The notes: generated by a model not told the origin, from the letters alone. A stretch of DNA of 13,706 nt from a bacterium (GCA_046485285.1 JAWOHE010000053.1:1-13706), one strand, 5' to 3'; positions 7,345 to 13,117 are shown, counted from the first letter of the stretch. Translations and numbers: made by a program.

Positions 7345-8115
7345 ATGGCAGACAACCGACAGCGGCCGGCCCGGGGCATCGCGACCACGCTCCTGCTTGT
7401 TGTCCTCGCGGCCGGGTGCGGCACGCGCGACCTGACCGAGAAGGTCAGCGTCAGCCTGCCGCCGGTCGCGGACGGCGAGGTCTCGACCTACCGGATAGTG
7501 ACGCCGGCCGGCGAGGCCGGCACGCTGGTCACCGCGGTGCACCACGACTGGCACGAGAAGACGCCGGTCTACCGGCTCACGGTCACGGCCCGGACACTGA
7601 CCGGCGCGGTCGAGACCACTGACTCCTCGCTGGTCGTGATGCGGCAGGTCGACCTGCGGCCAGTCGTGTCCTACCGGTTCATCCGGACCGGCGGGGCACT
7701 GCTCACGACAGCAGCCAACTACGGTGAGGGTTCGATAGCGGTCAGCACCTGGATGCATACCGGCCAAGAGCACCAGCGGCTGCTGCCGACCGACGTCCGG
7801 TCATTCGACACCGACCAACTCACGTTCCTCGGCCGCGCGCTCCGGCCCAGGCCCGGCCGGCCGGTCAAGCTGACGGTCATCGAACCGCTGGGCCCGCCGC
7901 CGGGCGGCAATCTCCGGCCGGGCGAGTTCGAGGCGCTGCCGGACGAGGAAGTCACGGTGCCCGCCGGTAGATTCGACTGCCGCAAACTCGCGCTGACGGT
8001 CGGCGACAGCCGGCTCGAGCTGTGGTACGAGAAATCCGGAGCGGGCAGGCTCGTCCGCTACTCCGCGGTCGGCACCGACATCATACTCGAACTTCTGGAC
8101 GAGCTGCGAGAATAG
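7345..8115 (+). CDS. Putative lipoprotein, beta-rich, possibly DUF3108-like
   Basis: Basic N-region, hydrophobic stretch and lipobox LAAG-C. The C-terminal 'EEVTVPAGRFDC.KL......LWY' motif is common in DUF3108-like proteins. Starts 4 nt after guaA. Confidence 0.75.
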   Translation: MADNRQRPARGIATTLLLVVLAAGCGTRDLTEKVSVSLPPVADGEVSTYRIVTPAGEAGTLVTAVHHDWHEKTPVYRLTVTARTLTGAVETTDSSLVVMRQVDLRPVVSYRFIRTGGALLTTAANYGEGSIAVSTWMHTGQEHQRLLPTDVRSFDTDQLTFLGRALRPRPGRPVKLTVIEPLGPPPGGNLRPGEFEALPDEEVTVPAGRFDCRKLALTVGDSRLELWYEKSGAGRLVRYSAVGTDIILELLDELRE

Positions 8116-8116
8116 A

Positions 8117-8139
8117 CGCGGGCGGGAGCCGGGCCCGCG
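8117..8139 (+). terminator. Possible terminator hairpin after the operon
   Basis: CGCGGGC/GCCCGCG stem directly after TAG 8115. No U-tract. Confidence 0.3.
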
Positions 8140-8151
8140 CCCCACGGTACT

Positions 8152-8203
8152 TGTCGCAGCACTTAAGTTACGTGTGATGGCAACTTAGGAAGTCGGTGCG
8201 ACA
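8152..8203. promoter_or_regulatory. Imperfect palindrome, candidate enhancer (bEBP upstream activating sequence)
   Basis: TGTCGCA (8152-8158)/TGCGACA (8197-8203) with nested TAAGTT (8164-8169)/AACTTA (8182-8187), about 115-165 bp upstream of the predicted sigma54 start. Confidence 0.45.
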
Positions 8204-8288
8204 TCGCGCCGAATCGCCAGTCTGTGTCCGTATCTGGGCAATGCGCCTTGGGTCAACTGGTTATGGCGAAGCAGGCCGTTTCCGGGCC

Positions 8289-8305
8289 CCGGCACGGGGC
8301 GTGCA
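8289..8305 (+). promoter_or_regulatory. Sigma54 (RpoN) -24/-12 promoter
   Basis: ccGGCACGgggcgTGCA: GG at 8291-8292 and GC at 8303-8304 with exact N10 spacing, matching TGGCACG-N4-TTGC(A/T). Followed by an AT-rich stretch (TATATTGTT). Confidence 0.7.
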
Positions 8306-8315
8306 TATATTGTTG

Positions 8316-8666
8316 CGGCACAGTGTTGAACTACTCACCAAGACCCCCAGAAACGGTCGCTCAAGTGCGACGAGTAGTCGTCACACCTCCTCCAAGTACG
8401 TGCATCTTAGCCTCAACCGAGCCGGTCCCGGGCACGCGCTCCCAGCGCGTATCCCGGGCCCAGTCGCAAGAAGGTCGGTGCAGGGAGACACTCCACCAAG
8501 CCTCAGGAGTACCATCCCCATCTCATCAGGCCCGAGTCACTCTCCAAACACCCCTGCTCGGGCGTGCTCTTCAACCGGAGTCCACTGCACCGACCTTCTT
8601 CTGTCGCGGTGTCGCGCGACAGATGTCGCAGTAGGGACACCTCTTCGGCCCCGGAGAGGCAGTTTT
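8316..8666 (+). ncRNA. Candidate structured non-coding RNA (~350 nt), family not recognised; ends approximate
   Basis: Lies downstream of the sigma54 promoter. Multiple stems including a perfect 16-bp helix 8468-8483/8585-8600, C-rich loops, and a hairpin plus TTTT at 8640-8666. No convincing coding frame. Confidence 0.6.
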
Positions 8667-8669
8667 CGG

Positions 8670-8709
8670 GAAGCGTAGGACCCCGGCGCCAGCCGGGGTC
8701 CTGTGATTC
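8670..8709. terminator. Strong hairpin between the candidate ncRNA (+) and the C25 gene (-)
   Basis: AGGACCCCGGC-gcca-GCCGGGGTCCT perfect 11-bp stem, extendable with G-U pairs, ending about 15 nt from the C25 stop at 8725. Confidence 0.55.
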
Positions 8710-8724
8710 GGGCCGAGGGTTCCG

Positions 8725-11700
8725 CTACCGGAGTTTCACAACCTTCTCCGTCCGGCCGCCGAGCCGGATGAAGTAGACCCCGGGCCGGAGGTCCGGCCGC
8801 CAGAGCCACATGCCGGCCCCGGCCGCGGGCGTGAGCAGGTGCTCGGCGCAGACCCGGCCGGAGGCGTCAAGGCCGACGAGCCGGACCGGCCCGGTCAGGG
8901 GCGCCTGCGAGCTGATTTCAAGCGCGTCGGTGAAGAGCCGGGAGCGGATGCCGAGCCCGGCGACCGGGGCCGACAGGCGGGGTCCCTCGGCGACCGCGAC
9001 TGGCGGGTCGTACCAGGCCTCGGCGCTGTCGGAGTTGGCGAGCATCCCGGCGACGGTGCGGCCGCCGACGAGGACGAAGGCGACAATCTGGCTGTCGCCG
9101 GCCGGGATGGCGTACGGCCCGGAGGAGGCCATCGCGTGCCAGTTGCCGATGGTCGGGCCGGTGGTCGAGCGCAGTGTGCCGTCCATGTAGCCCATTTTCT
9201 CGGCCTTGGTGAAGCCGTCGGCGATGGCGGTGTTGCTGATGCAGTTGGCCCAGCCGTTCATCCCCTGCGGCCAGATCGGCCGGATGCCGAGCGCGGTGGT
9301 CTCGGGCTGGGACCGGACGTAGGCGAGGATGCGGGCCGAGTCGGTCCCGGCGTAGTCGTACTGGTCGTTGACGTTCCAGTTGCCGGTGCGGAAGTCGCAG
9401 GCGACCGCGGCGTAGAGACCCTCGACCGCTTCCGCACCCCGGTTGCGGATACGGTACTCGAGGATGACGAAGTCGCGGTGGGCGGGCACGGCGCTGCCGT
9501 ATGCGCGCTGGGCGATGTCGAGGCCGCGCGGGGAGGGGTGGTTCGAGTCGGTGAAGCTCGCGACGAACTGCTTGGCGCCGAGTTCGGGCGGCCAGACCGG
9601 CCGGACCGAGTCCCCGGGCGCGAAGTCGAGCGGGCAGCGGCGCCAGTCCGGCGCGCCGTAGTAGTTGTCCGCGACCCAGCCGGTGTCGGTGCCGAGGACG
9701 AGCGCGCCGTGCATCAGCGCGGTGTTGGACCACGAGCGCGACTTCGGGTAGATGAACCCGAAGCCCTCGCCCCGCCACTCGGTCGTCCCGATGCCGCCGT
9801 TGTTCATCACCGAGAGGACGTAGTCGCCGGTGTCGAGGACCGCCCAGTTGCCGCCGCGGCCGTGGGGCAGGCCGACGGCGAGCGCGAGCTCAGAACGCCA
9901 GAGCCCGTCGGACGCGGTGACGATCAGGTTCAGCTCGGCCCGGTGGCCGTGCGGGCAGTCGCGGCTGACCCGGACCCGGTAGGCGTCGCCCGCCGCGGTG
10001 TCCCCGACCGCGACGTCGCCATACGACGAACTGCCGCCGACGACGGTGAGATACGGCGAGCCGGACGAGAGCACCCCGGAAGCCTCGGCGGCCGCGGCGT
10101 TGCCGCGGTTCCGGACGACGAGGTAGAGGTCCGACTCCTCGCCCGGGTCGAGCCGGCCGTCCGGGTCGTCAACCCGGGCGTGGCTGTAGACGACGAGCGC
10201 ATTCTCGTGGCCGGCGCCGACGGCAACCGCCTTCGCGAACGGCCGGCCGTCGGGCGCGGTGACCATTAGTTCGAGGGTCGAGGACTCCTCGAGGGCGGGA
10301 ATCGCGAGGGTCGCGACCCCGTCCGAGCCGGTTACGGCCCGGGCGACGAGCTCGCCCTGGCGGGTAAGCGCGACGCGGGCGCGGGCCGCCTGTCCGGCAC
10401 CGGCGAAGCGGACGTCGGCGCTCAGGGTCTGGGGTACGGCGGAGATCGAGTCCGGGAAGTCGACCTCGAGTTCCATCGGCACGCCGCGATGCACCGCCAT
10501 CGTCGGGTCGCCCTGCAGGGTGTTGGTGTAGAGCGCCCAGCGCGTCGACATCTGGCTGTAGCTCTCGTTGCGGAGGAAGTCGCGGGCGAGGCCGTGGGAC
10601 TGGCCGAGGGTCAGCGCCTTCTGGAAGTTGTGGTAGATCTGGCAGTTGAGGTTCTCGTTCGGGCCCTGGCAGGGCGGCGCGCCCCAGCCGTAGCGGGCGT
10701 TGAGCATCGTCGCGACCGCACCGCCGTTGGCGACGGTAACGAACTGCTCGCCGAGGCAGTCGTTGGCGTCGTCGAACCAGCCGCAGTCGCAGGCCATCGA
10801 GACGACGATCGCAGGCTTCGTGACATTGGTCAGGCTCGTCAGGTTCGAGGTCGAGAAGGTCGAGCCGAACGCGGTGCGCGAGCCGTGGCCGGCGAAGTGG
10901 AAGTGCTGGCGGCCAGCGTTGAGCCCGGTGATGACCCGGCTCGAGTTGAGATTGAGTCCGGAGTCAACCTGCCAGGGCGAGCGGTTGTTGAGGAGCAGGG
11001 CGATGTTGCGGTTGACGATGCCGCCGTGGTAGTCGATGTTCGACCAGAGCACCTCGTGGGGTAGCAGCACATCGTCGAGGCTGGCGGTGTCGGGCAGCTT
11101 CTCGTAGGTCGTATCCTTGCGCAGGAAACTGGCGGCGTGGCTCGCGTCGTCGAACGGCAGGCGGCCGACGTAGACGTCGTGGAACAGGTCGAGCGAGTCG
11201 CCCTCCATCTCGCCGAACCGGTTGTTGCCGCTCGCGTCCCAGCTCCCGTCGAGGTCGCCGAAGTACATATCGGCCGGGACGTTGTAGCTGGTGTAGGGCA
11301 GGTAGCCGTAGCGCACCGGGCAGTGCTGGTAGTCGCCGGCGAGGATGACGTACTTGAGCCCCTGCTCGGCGTAGAGCCGCTTGACGAGATTGCGCATCTT
11401 CTCCTGGGTATCGCGGCCCGGGGTCGAGAGCGTGTCGTGGCGGACGATCTCGGTGAAGTAGCCCTTGCGCGCGAGCCACTGGCGCAGGCCGGTGAGCGCG
11501 GGCGCGAGCGTCGCGCTGGTGAACATCACGACGTCGACCTCGGCCGCGTCGGTCTCGGCGACGGGCGGGGCCATCCGGGCAAGGTCGCCCGGATTCAGGA
11601 CGAGGGCGGCGACGTCGGCGGAGAAGAGCCGGTCCTGGGCCGGGGTCAGGACGCTGACCGGCACCGCGTTCTCGCGGTAGCGGACGGTGAGCTCGGCGCG

Positions 11701-12195
11701 GGTGACCAGCGTCAGCCGGCCGGACGCCGGCCGGTACTCGAACGGGCACCAGCGGAAGCCGGCGAGCCGGTAGCCGGACCGGGTGCCGGCCGGGACCGCC
11801 TCGAGCGCGGGGGCCGGGAAGACCTCATCCGGGGTCCAGGCCCGCGCGACGGGCGGGACGAACGGGATGCTCGCGAACTGCGACAGCGGCCGCATCGGCT
11901 GGACCGGGTGGACTCGGTGCGTGCCGAGCTCGGTCCGCGCGAGCGGGGCGATCGTGATTTCCTCGACCTCGGCGCCGGCCGGGATGAGGACGTTGCCGGA
12001 AACGAGCGGCAGGAGTGGCTCGCCCGGGACCGACGTCCACGACCGCACCGCGCCGGCAAGGCCGAGGTCAAGGTCAAGTACTGCGTAGCCGTTGTCGTCG
12101 GAGCGGACGACCTCGGCCGGGCTGATGGAGAGCGTGCTGGTGACGGTGCCGCCGAAGGCGACCGCGACCGCAAGCAGGCCGGCAATCAGGGACAT
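8725..12195 (-). CDS. C25 (gingipain-family) cysteine peptidase with propeptide, Ig-like/accessory domains and C-terminal sorting-like domain (1156 aa)
   Basis: Short signal peptide; propeptide 'PGEPLLP......LIP.GA...' and 'PFEYRP..GRL'; C25 core 'YVILAGD', 'PADMYFGDLDG.WD..GN..FGE...D.F.DVYVGRLP'; catalytic His (FAGHG) and Cys (MACDCG); 'LQGDP'; C-terminal 'PGVYFIRL...TEKVVKLR'. SD AAGGAGG before ATG 12195. Confidence 0.9.
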   Translation of the reverse strand: MSLIAGLLAVAVAFGGTVTSTLSISPAEVVRSDDNGYAVLDLDLGLAGAVRSWTSVPGEPLLPLVSGNVLIPAGAEVEEITIAPLARTELGTHRVHPVQPMRPLSQFASIPFVPPVARAWTPDEVFPAPALEAVPAGTRSGYRLAGFRWCPFEYRPASGRLTLVTRAELTVRYRENAVPVSVLTPAQDRLFSADVAALVLNPGDLARMAPPVAETDAAEVDVVMFTSATLAPALTGLRQWLARKGYFTEIVRHDTLSTPGRDTQEKMRNLVKRLYAEQGLKYVILAGDYQHCPVRYGYLPYTSYNVPADMYFGDLDGSWDASGNNRFGEMEGDSLDLFHDVYVGRLPFDDASHAASFLRKDTTYEKLPDTASLDDVLLPHEVLWSNIDYHGGIVNRNIALLLNNRSPWQVDSGLNLNSSRVITGLNAGRQHFHFAGHGSRTAFGSTFSTSNLTSLTNVTKPAIVVSMACDCGWFDDANDCLGEQFVTVANGGAVATMLNARYGWGAPPCQGPNENLNCQIYHNFQKALTLGQSHGLARDFLRNESYSQMSTRWALYTNTLQGDPTMAVHRGVPMELEVDFPDSISAVPQTLSADVRFAGAGQAARARVALTRQGELVARAVTGSDGVATLAIPALEESSTLELMVTAPDGRPFAKAVAVGAGHENALVVYSHARVDDPDGRLDPGEESDLYLVVRNRGNAAAAEASGVLSSGSPYLTVVGGSSSYGDVAVGDTAAGDAYRVRVSRDCPHGHRAELNLIVTASDGLWRSELALAVGLPHGRGGNWAVLDTGDYVLSVMNNGGIGTTEWRGEGFGFIYPKSRSWSNTALMHGALVLGTDTGWVADNYYGAPDWRRCPLDFAPGDSVRPVWPPELGAKQFVASFTDSNHPSPRGLDIAQRAYGSAVPAHRDFVILEYRIRNRGAEAVEGLYAAVACDFRTGNWNVNDQYDYAGTDSARILAYVRSQPETTALGIRPIWPQGMNGWANCISNTAIADGFTKAEKMGYMDGTLRSTTGPTIGNWHAMASSGPYAIPAGDSQIVAFVLVGGRTVAGMLANSDSAEAWYDPPVAVAEGPRLSAPVAGLGIRSRLFTDALEISSQAPLTGPVRLVGLDASGRVCAEHLLTPAAGAGMWLWRPDLRPGVYFIRLGGRTEKVVKLR

Positions 12196-12235
12196 GCTGC
12201 CTCCTTGGGAAGATGACCGATGACGGACATCTTTA

Positions 12236-12263
12236 ATCATCGGCCCGTCCCGGGCAGAGTCAA
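12236..12263 (-). promoter_or_regulatory. Possible sigma70 promoter for the C25 gene
   Basis: Minus strand TTGACT (12263-12258), 16 nt, GATGAT, then an AT-rich TAAAG. The -10 match is imperfect. Confidence 0.35.
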
Positions 12264-12343
12264 GCGGCCGGTCGCTGTGGGGCAGGACAGGTCAAGCTCG
12301 CGGCGGCCGCGCCCCGGGCCGCGGCTTACCGACGTCCCCGGTA

Positions 12344-13117
12344 TCAGCCATCGGCCCGGGCGAAGTCGCAGGCGAGCAGGCTTTCGGCCGTTGCGGTTCC
12401 GGGAAGCGAATCCGGCAGTTCATCATAGACCTGGCCGTTGAGCTCCCGGCCGGTCAGGTCCTTCCGCACCCCGCCCCACTGCTTGAAGAAGAACGCCGCC
12501 CCGGCCTCCTCGCACTGCCGCCGGATGGACTGCACCCAGGACTCCTTCATCTCCCGCGCGCCCGGCCCGGACTCGCCGCCGACAATCACCCAGTGAATGC
12601 CGTCGAGCGCCAGCCGGCCGAGGTCGGCAATCAGCGGCTCGCAGGACAGGAACCGCACCGCGGCCAGGACCGCGCGCAGGTCCGCAATCCTGCTCTTGAC
12701 CTCAGGGCTTTCGACGGTCACCCCGGCCCAGACATTCTCCGGCCAGCGCGGCAGGCGCCGGGCGTAGGCCAGCATCTTCCCGCTTCGCTTCGTCAGCAAC
12801 TGGAACACGTGCCGGGGGCAGGCCCGCATCGTCTCGAACACCCGGTCGGTGAAATTGAACGGCACGTGGGTATGGAACAGGTCGGACATCGAGTTCACGA
12901 ACACCATCCGGGGCTTCCGCCACGACAGCGGCGTCCCGAGCATATGCTCGTGGAGCGTGACCCGGAATCCGTTCTTGTAGTTCGGGTTGCCCATCGCCTG
13001 CAGGCGCAGGGCCAGCCGCTTCGCGTAGCAGTGCGCGCACCCGGCGCTGATAGGGCTACACCCGGTCGTCGGGTTCCAGGTCGCCTCGGTCCATTCGATG
13101 GAGGAGTCGTAGGACAT
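12344..13117 (-). CDS. DUF5131 / phage Gp37-Gp68 family protein (three-Cys, radical-SAM-like)
   Basis: SSIEWTEATWNPTTGCSPISAGCAHCYA (Cx6Cx2C), FVNSMSDLFH, FQLLTKR, NVWAGVTVE, RFLSCEPL, IHWVIVGGESGPGAR, FFFKQWGG. Confidence 0.92.
   Translation of the reverse strand: MSYDSSIEWTEATWNPTTGCSPISAGCAHCYAKRLALRLQAMGNPNYKNGFRVTLHEHMLGTPLSWRKPRMVFVNSMSDLFHTHVPFNFTDRVFETMRACPRHVFQLLTKRSGKMLAYARRLPRWPENVWAGVTVESPEVKSRIADLRAVLAAVRFLSCEPLIADLGRLALDGIHWVIVGGESGPGAREMKESWVQSIRRQCEEAGAAFFFKQWGGVRKDLTGRELNGQVYDELPDSLPGTATAESLLACDFARADG

Follow-up and report, generated by a model that had tools for sequence, protein, structure and literature searches.

The Qrr1-5 RNAs of Vibrio are LuxO- and sigma-54-dependent small RNAs (sRNAs) of ~100 nt, and RsaE/RoxS represent the C-rich-loop sRNAs of the Firmicutes. 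In Campylobacter jejuni, an RpoN-linked sRNA is reported to be paired with a second sRNA (CJnc230/CJnc170; PMC11187230). GlnZ is reported to be an sRNA derived from the 3'UTR of glnA, a sigma-54-dependent mRNA (PMC9731577). The locus described below shares features with these systems and was analysed within a 13,706-nt stretch of bacterial DNA (GCA_046485285.1 JAWOHE010000053.1:1-13706), henceforth referred to as the window; the genome to which it belongs, G000, is 88% complete. On balance, we consider it probable that the locus carries a stand-alone sigma-54-dependent sRNA of a new candidate division WOR-3 family, which pairs its C-rich loops with the G-rich leaders of co-regulated transcripts.

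Results

Genomic context of the RNA locus

A non-coding gap of 609 bp (8116-8724) separates the DUF3108 gene from the convergent Peptidase_C25 gene, a neighbour that is also present in several relatives. A first-pass annotation of the window had placed in this gap a sigma-54 element and a stand-alone structured RNA, possibly processed from a long helix, and had found no credible gene there. All of the motifs and inverted repeats that it listed were recovered in place, and the convergent orientation of the next gene agrees with a stand-alone transcription unit; nothing was found in support of processing. The features are collected in Table 1.

Table 1 Features of the RNA locus and its neighbours, in window coordinates.
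Feature	Position	Strand	Sequence or basis
DUF3108 gene	7345-8115	+	Pfam PF11306, E 7.6e-9; synteny anchor of the rod RNA family
Candidate upstream activator sites	8152-8205		TGTCGCA 8152-8158, inverse TGCGACA 8197-8203, flanking TAAGTTAC; repeats D5/I9
Sigma-54 -24/-12 promoter	8291-8305	+	GGCACG-GGGCG-TGCA; GG-N10-GC spacing; family consensus
Variable 5' domain	8316-8467	+	hairpins 8330-8378 and 8424-8460; fold z = -3.0
Conserved rod, family core (133 nt)	8468-8600	+	helices P1, P1b, P2, P3
P1	8468-8483/8585-8600	+	perfect 16-bp inverted repeat (I1)
P1b	8490-8494/8577-8581	+	ACTCC/GGAGT
P2	8505-8512/8564-8571	+	AGGAGTAC/GTGCTCTT
Junction J2/3	8513-8529	+	
P3	8530-8536/8557-8563	+	GCCCGAG/CTCGGGC
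C-rich apical loop	8537-8556	+	contains ACACCCC
Four activator-site-like hexamers	8602-8629		TGTCGC at 8602, 8610 and 8624; GCGACA at 8616
Intrinsic-terminator-like hairpin	8640-8666	+	CCTCTTCGG-CC-CCGGAGAGG (8640-8659), then CAG-TTTT (TTTT 8663-8666); sequence, fold
GC-rich hairpin between RNA and convergent gene	8674-8702		GGACCCCGGC-GCCA-GCCGGGGTCC; inverted repeat I2
Peptidase_C25 gene, convergent, 3' neighbour of RNA	8725-12240	-	Pfam PF01364, E 2.2e-40

The gap was confirmed to lack a credible gene. GC content drops from ~0.72 to ~0.60 within it, and its third-position GC (GC3) of 0.53-0.70 in all three phases shows no codon periodicity, as compared with 0.83-0.98 in the flanking genes. 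Two + strand open reading frames (ORFs) cross the gap, 8196-8678 (160 codons) and 8224-8634 (136 codons), and neither has a Pfam match. The first-pass annotation had named conservation of either frame among homologues as evidence against an RNA; no + frame through the rod core is open in all of the 26 members examined, and the conserved blocks switch frame between genera. The gap thus has neither a conserved + strand open frame nor the codon periodicity of protein-coding sequence. No repeat or mobile element was indicated, the region being single-copy in its own genome, and ARAGORN detected no tRNA or tmRNA in it. The upstream gene has a terminator-like hairpin of its own at 8115-8145, and the hairpin at 8674-8702 may serve to terminate the C25 peptidase gene. 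Further downstream, a DUF5131 gene lies at 12344-13117 on the - strand (Pfam E 6e-96); this family is often phage-borne.

Predicted fold of the RNA

Relative to dinucleotide shuffles, the region 8316-8670 is predicted to fold with z = -4.4 on the + strand and -3.4 on the - strand, in keeping with the structured element first proposed. The rod alone reaches z = -6.9 on the + strand and -4.5 on the - strand, with 0 of 200 shuffles as stable. In the 5' domain, the hairpin ACTACTC (8330-8336)/GAGTAGT (8372-8378) encloses GTCGC/GCGAC, the hairpin at 8424-8460 corresponds to inverted repeat I3, and a CU-rich, anti-Shine-Dalgarno-like segment, CACACCTCCTCC, is left unpaired at 8382-8393. This domain can be aligned in part with that of the same-genus genome G002 and not across genera, so that conservation of the 5' modules is limited to the genus. 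The hairpin and T-run at 8640-8666 likely form the 3' end of an RNA of ~350 nt; a simple terminator scan did not list them because only four T residues follow the hairpin, and folding of 8601-8670 in isolation gives another hairpin at the same site.

Identification and distribution of the family

No known RNA family was matched in the window by Rfam 15 at the gathering threshold, and the claim of novelty stands. At E values up to 10, only chance-level matches to short hairpins were returned, one of which, a weak match, covers the hairpin at 8674-8702 only; at E values up to 0.1, there were no matches in the loci of 8 relatives. The literature search returned no account of the rod RNA family and none combining "WOR-3" and "sRNA". 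BLAST of 8140-8724 against 60 relatives returned only short chance matches, and the homologue search suggested in the first-pass annotation, conducted with blastn and nhmmer against syntenic loci, gave no alignment. Such a failure of plain DNA searches is to be expected, the DUF3108 orthologs being only 50-61% identical as proteins even within the genus. Short repeated matches to the outer stem were the clue that exposed the family, and a long hairpin was then seen in many genera by inspection of the DNA 3' of DUF3108 orthologs. The outer stem of the relatives reads GGTCGGYGC/GCRCCGACC or GGGCTGGNGC/GCNCCAGCCC, and the interior is near-invariant among them (CCACCCCAUGCAGUCACCCCUCAACACCGGACCGA...ACACCCCCUCGGCCCG...UGACUGC).

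A covariance model built from six relatives' sequences and trained without the window (R1) found exactly one match per genome in 25 of the 43 other genomes of the taxonomic family, covering 13 of 15 genera. The window's rod scored 29.7 bits on the + strand (E 7e-5), as compared with 39-130 bits for the other members, and 23.7 bits on the - strand; the latter score arises from the palindromic outer stem only. A second model (R2), built from a 28-member alignment that includes the window's rod, found matches in 30 of the 43 family genomes and in none of 22 genomes from four other families of the order. The window's rod was the sole R2 match in its own genome, at 61.7 bits for a sequence contained in the training set. 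An exact search for the 21-nt core in a collection of 185,579 species returned 10 records, six assigned to candidate division WOR-3 and four to "uncultured bacterium", and the metagenome scan gave no match to the window-type outer stem. The rod RNA family is therefore new to Rfam and so far found only in one WOR-3 family.

DUF3108 orthologs were present in 32 of 41 family genomes, and the rod nearly always lies 3' of this gene, either directly or behind an inserted lipoprotein gene of ~320 codons. The RNA family was not found in three of the four other genomes of the genus (G001, G003 and G004), whose assemblies are fragmented; the contigs of G001 and G004 stop 376-421 nt past the DUF3108 gene. 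At the loci of eight relatives (L009, L011, L012, L014, L015, L017, L019 and L023), a sigma-54 promoter after the DUF3108 gene would drive the ~320-codon lipoprotein gene, two examples of which had no Pfam match. Since the RNA follows the lipoprotein gene, such a locus may contain up to three consecutive sigma-54 units.

Covariation and strand assignment

Standard base pairs occupy 89.5% of the cells in the 28-member alignment, and both partners vary in 17 of 26 pairs. Covariation scored 0.312, compared with 0.159 in column shuffles (0 of 500 reaching the observed value) and 0.055-0.099 in slid-partner controls; having been fitted to the model, the alignment is biased towards the structure, and the covariation is read as real because of the effect size and the slid control. 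Model-based alignments were used in place of a MAFFT alignment of 15 rods, in which the 3' halves were misaligned. Compensatory changes were observed in 10 of the 14 P1 pairs. Those in P2 come mostly from the window, which has AGGAGUAC/GUGCUCUU where the other members have GCAGUCA/UGACUGC. The P3 hairpin, whose sequence varies, was recognised in 25 of 28 members, and its loop almost always ends in CACCCC, that of the window included.

Several features bear on the strand, among them the direction of the promoter, which is that of the + strand. P1 and P2 together contain 33 G-U as opposed to 16 A-C pairs; the excess is only 2:1 and was counted with the alignment already fitted to the + strand. 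C makes up 40% of the unpaired positions and G 17%. In relatives, the rod is succeeded at variable distance by T-runs or terminators, the T-runs of the low-GC relatives being on the + strand. The covariation, the G-U excess and the terminators 3' of the rod uphold the original proposal of a structured + strand RNA. On comparative grounds, the family is a real conserved structured RNA equipped with a sigma-54 promoter, from which it is presumably transcribed.

Sigma-54 promoter and candidate activator

Taken by itself, the promoter motif is at chance level, with one match in the window against 0.28 expected and at least one match in 50 of 200 shuffles; G000 contains 180 such motifs. Its conservation sets it apart from such matches: a TGGCACG-N5-TGCA consensus lies upstream of the rod on the same strand, 64-296 nt away, in 28 of 28 aligned loci, with the strict pattern in 27 and one mismatch in the remaining locus. 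The sigma-54 element first noted as pointing into the gap thus has its equivalent in every aligned orthologous locus. From the usual sigma-54 spacing, transcription would start near 8316. The -24 and -12 elements at 8292-8304 also form a palindrome, GCACG-GGG-CGTGC, followed by ATATATTGTT, and were listed as terminator-like by the terminator scan; this palindrome is probably incidental.

In the 300 nt preceding each of the 28 promoters, the density of TGTCGC/GCGACA hexamers is 6.16 per kb, compared with 0.90 per kb elsewhere in the loci, an enrichment of ~7-fold, and the sites at 8152-8205 would by their sequence be those bound by the activator in the window. The first-pass annotation had also described CTGTCGCG/CGCGACAG as paired RNA segments. 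These sequences are present at 8601-8622, but an RNA hairpin is the less likely reading. In relatives, a TGTCGCA motif follows the rod and precedes a second sigma-54 promoter, so the window's sequences are more likely DNA sites belonging to the cluster of activator hexamers at 8602-8629. No second sigma-54 promoter was found behind this cluster in the window.

The gene for sigma-54, rpoN, whose presence in the genome had been suggested as a check, was identified on contig C37 of G000 (597-codon open frame; Sigma54_DBD 156 bits). On contig C18, a protein with GAF, Sigma54_activat and HTH_8 domains adjoins a TGTCGCA cluster and is a candidate for the activator of the regulon. The gene, at 9029-12127 (+) (locus L064), encodes 1033 codons, with the GAF, sigma-54 activation and HTH_8 domains at the end of the protein. 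Immediately 3' of it, 12150-12330 contains a TGTCGCA/TGCGACA cluster and the sigma-54 promoter of a secreted protein.

A predicted complementary partner transcript in relatives

Fifteen of 25 relatives have a second sigma-54 promoter, placed 158-244 nt 3' of the rod, and the predicted second transcript bears a GGUGUUGAGG-like sequence complementary to the rod junction. This transcript begins with GGUGUUGAGGG or displays it in the loop of a 5' hairpin, and GGUGUUGAGGG is the exact complement of the rod junction CCCCUCAACACC. In nine genomes (genera g1, g6, g10, g11, g12, g14 and g15), the second transcript is the leader of a gene for a secreted repeat protein with a C-terminal FlgD_ig domain (T9SS-type). 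In genera g2 and g3, a stand-alone RNA of ~150 nt takes the place of this leader; it has a terminator and also bears CUUCCUCCUU. A model of the stand-alone RNA (R3) additionally matches an element 3' of the protein gene in other genera, so the short RNA may be the gene's leader and tail fused.

The complementarity is accompanied by compensatory changes between the two RNAs, CACCACC facing GGUGGUGA in G018 and ACACU facing AGUGUU in G023. Among 11 representative lineages, the cognate duplexes were better than permuted ones in all but 314 of 20000 permutations. In four of nine leaders, a second hairpin with the loop UGGGGUGU or UGAGGUGU complements the P3 loop sequence ACACCCC, as judged by eye. 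On the strength of the junction/leader complementarity and the matched changes, we interpret the family as trans-acting sRNAs with C-rich loops, which would be activated together with the neighbouring transcript and pair with it. Neither Hfq nor CsrA was found in the genome. At four loci (L036, L037, L043 and L060), a sequence nearly identical to the CAACACC seed, GAACACCUC, occurs within the leader of the secreted-protein gene itself, 20-40 nt ahead of the start codon; as it adjoins the GGGGUGU-loop hairpin, the sRNA might compete with pairing internal to the leader.

The window's own copy and its possible targets

A conserved unpaired seed with a covarying complementary target was observed for the family (CCCCUCAACACC/GGUGUUGAGGG, 15 of 25 loci) and not for the window copy, in which CAUCCCCAUCUCAUCAG replaces the canonical CCCCUCAACACC at the junction. 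The promoter, the helices, the CACCCC loop and the terminator are kept. Searches of the 88%-complete genome located no partner: tblastn did not find the N-terminal part of the secreted-protein gene, matching only the common C-terminal sorting domain, and the R3 model of the second sRNA had no match at E values up to 10. The pattern of a promoter followed by GTKGAGG was absent from G000, G008, G007 and G020 and had one match, probably by chance, in G010. With its seed diverged and no partner found in the genome, the window copy probably acts on other G-rich sites; with no partner located in an 88%-complete genome, the copy could also be decaying.

When the apical loop was compared with 1622 start regions, the best duplex (-33.1 kcal/mol; next -28.4) was that with the LptA-like gene preceding rpoN, a value attained by 0 of 2000 shuffled loops. 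The G-rich start region was absent from the 22 orthologs inspected, and the gene is regarded only as a lead for a target of the window copy. It lies at G000:C37:14709-15662 (-) (L092, L093), directly upstream of rpoN; a feature confined to G000 is an unusually G-rich stretch, GGGGAGCGAGGAAGGGGCAGGGGUGAAGGGAG, which is made up of the end of the preceding gene and covers the ribosome-binding site of the LptA-like gene.

Three near-identical cassettes were also observed in this genome, at G000:C5:21377(+), C70:2517(+) and C92:16936(-) (L061-L063). Each has ~300 nt of sequence bearing GCGACA/TGCGACA repeats, the promoter TGGCACGGAAC(T/C)TGCA and a predicted transcript starting ...UGCAGGGUGUGCAGAGAGGCACC, which begins with a UGCA-GGGUG-UGCA hairpin and, for the C5 cassette, extends ~140 nt into a convergent gene. 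These cassettes may be further sigma-54-dependent small RNAs. They were rejected as homologues of the second sRNA, the homology being unconvincing, and as partners of the window RNA, the complementarity being not significant (background fraction 0.02-0.12, three candidates).

Discussion

The reading that we favour is that window 8316-8666 (+) would encode a stand-alone regulatory RNA of ~350 nt, transcribed by sigma-54 RNA polymerase from the promoter at 8291-8305 after a GAF/AAA+/HTH enhancer-binding protein recognises the TGTCGCA repeats and activates it. The long P1-P2-P3 hairpin would expose C-rich single strands, for most genera CCCCUCAACACC between P2 and P3 and (A)CACCCC in the apical loop of P3. 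Their proposed pairing partners in trans are two G-rich hairpin loops, GGUGUUGAGGG and GGGGUGU, located at the start of the neighbouring transcript. The target would itself be sigma-54-dependent, being the leader of a T9SS-type protein gene in some genera and a short second sRNA in others. As the activator would drive both the sRNA and its target, the three would constitute a feed-forward module.

The window's own copy raises the question of whether this role persists in its lineage. It could be a decaying relic whose partner was lost and whose seed came under relaxed selection, still transcribed with no remaining regulatory role, a reading we consider rather unlikely. The replacement of the canonical junction, the low R1 score, the failure to find either the partner gene or the second sRNA, and the persistence, 3' of the rod, of activator hexamers that no second promoter follows are all as decay would predict. 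On the other hand, the promoter, the terminator, the three helices (P2 by way of compensatory changes) and the CACCCC loop are intact, and the rod surpasses the rest of the region in stability, whereas pairing would be expected to be the first thing lost from a relic; the partner may also lie in the unassembled part of the genome. A more detailed scheme, which we regard as unlikely, holds that the two adjacent sigma-54 transcripts share one activator, that loop kissing at two sites, UCAACACC-GGUGUUGA and ACACCCC-GGGGUGU, makes up an RNA-RNA feed-forward switch gating the T9SS protein, and that in the window lineage the partner was lost and the apical loop re-aimed at the LptA-like gene upstream of rpoN. 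If this re-aiming were true, sigma-54 would feed back on its own operon through the sRNA.

That the RNA acts mainly by binding and titrating a protein, for instance a regulator that recognises C-rich RNA or, as with 6S RNA, RNA polymerase, appears improbable. The RNA has an extended rod, interrupted by internal loops, and single-stranded motifs that scarcely vary across genera whose neighbouring proteins are only ~30-60% identical; conservation of this kind is typical of protein-binding sites, and the failure to find Hfq and CsrA would fit this reading as well. However, the invariant motif is exactly complemented in the adjacent transcript and changes with it in a compensatory manner. The 6S model has no match in the region, and a separate 6S-like RNA lies elsewhere in the genome. 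The latter, on the - strand at G000:C35:12746-12925 (locus L091), matches the 6S model over its full length with a score of 39 bits (E 1.9e-6), short of the Rfam cut-off of 46.4 bits, and is probably the divergent 6S RNA of the lineage.

We find it very doubtful that the locus contains no RNA gene and consists of DNA-level regulatory sequence, the rod being either a palindromic DNA element or the upstream gene's terminator and the rest made up of activator sites, a promoter relic and the terminators of two convergent genes. The outer stem is indeed a perfect palindrome that scores on the - strand, and the rod is flanked on either side by TGTCGC/GCGACA hexamers, with GTCGC/GCGAC inside the 5' domain at 8356-8371. 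Yet a sigma-54 promoter into the element is kept at every aligned locus and the upstream gene owns its terminator-like hairpin. P2 and P3 covary, the C-rich loops, which are asymmetric, show conservation on a single strand, G-U pairs exceed A-C pairs, and + strand T-runs follow the rod in the low-GC relatives. A small protein encoded by ORF 8196-8678 or 8224-8634 is highly implausible: both frames do span the region, but both start upstream of the promoter, GC3 is flat in all phases where flanking genes reach 0.98, Pfam is without a match, and, with the + frames covered, none stays open through the core of every member.

To our knowledge, no member of candidate division WOR-3 is in culture and amenable to genetics. 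The family described here would provide a regulatory module for this group that is testable outside the organism and comprises a class of promoter, a putative site for the activator, an sRNA with a defined fold and seed, and a predicted target in the leader of a secreted T9SS-type protein gene. It would add one more family to the short list of sigma-54-dependent sRNAs and offer a natural example of an sRNA and target that are co-activated and covary. The family is suitable for submission to Rfam.

Comparison with known systems

In overall length and shape, the rod recalls 6S RNA (RF00013), which is likewise long and largely double-stranded with internal loops, but the 6S model does not match the rod. 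The predicted partner RNA is comparable with GlnZ in that the second sRNA of the low-GC genera matches an element 3' of the secreted-protein gene elsewhere; this comparison concerns the partner RNA and not the window RNA, and the sequences are unrelated. The Campylobacter pair CJnc230/CJnc170 differs in being from an unrelated lineage with unrelated sequences, and the two RNAs described here lie side by side with sigma-54 promoters.

With RsaE/RoxS, the family shares several unpaired C-rich motifs (CCCC, CCUCC) that lie in loops and are complementary to G-rich, Shine-Dalgarno-like sequences. It differs from them in promoter type, size and fold, has no Rfam match, and has as its best-supported target the loop of a leader's 5' hairpin as opposed to a ribosome-binding site. 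The Qrr RNAs show a likeness in gene organization: a stand-alone sRNA gene with a -24/-12 promoter, upstream activator sites and a downstream terminator, and with mRNA leaders as targets, which for the present family are predicted. The window RNA was not matched by Rfam even though Qrr is included there, and it differs from Qrr in its size (~350 nt with a 130-nt rod versus ~100 nt), in being single-copy and in coming from a genome in which Hfq was not found.
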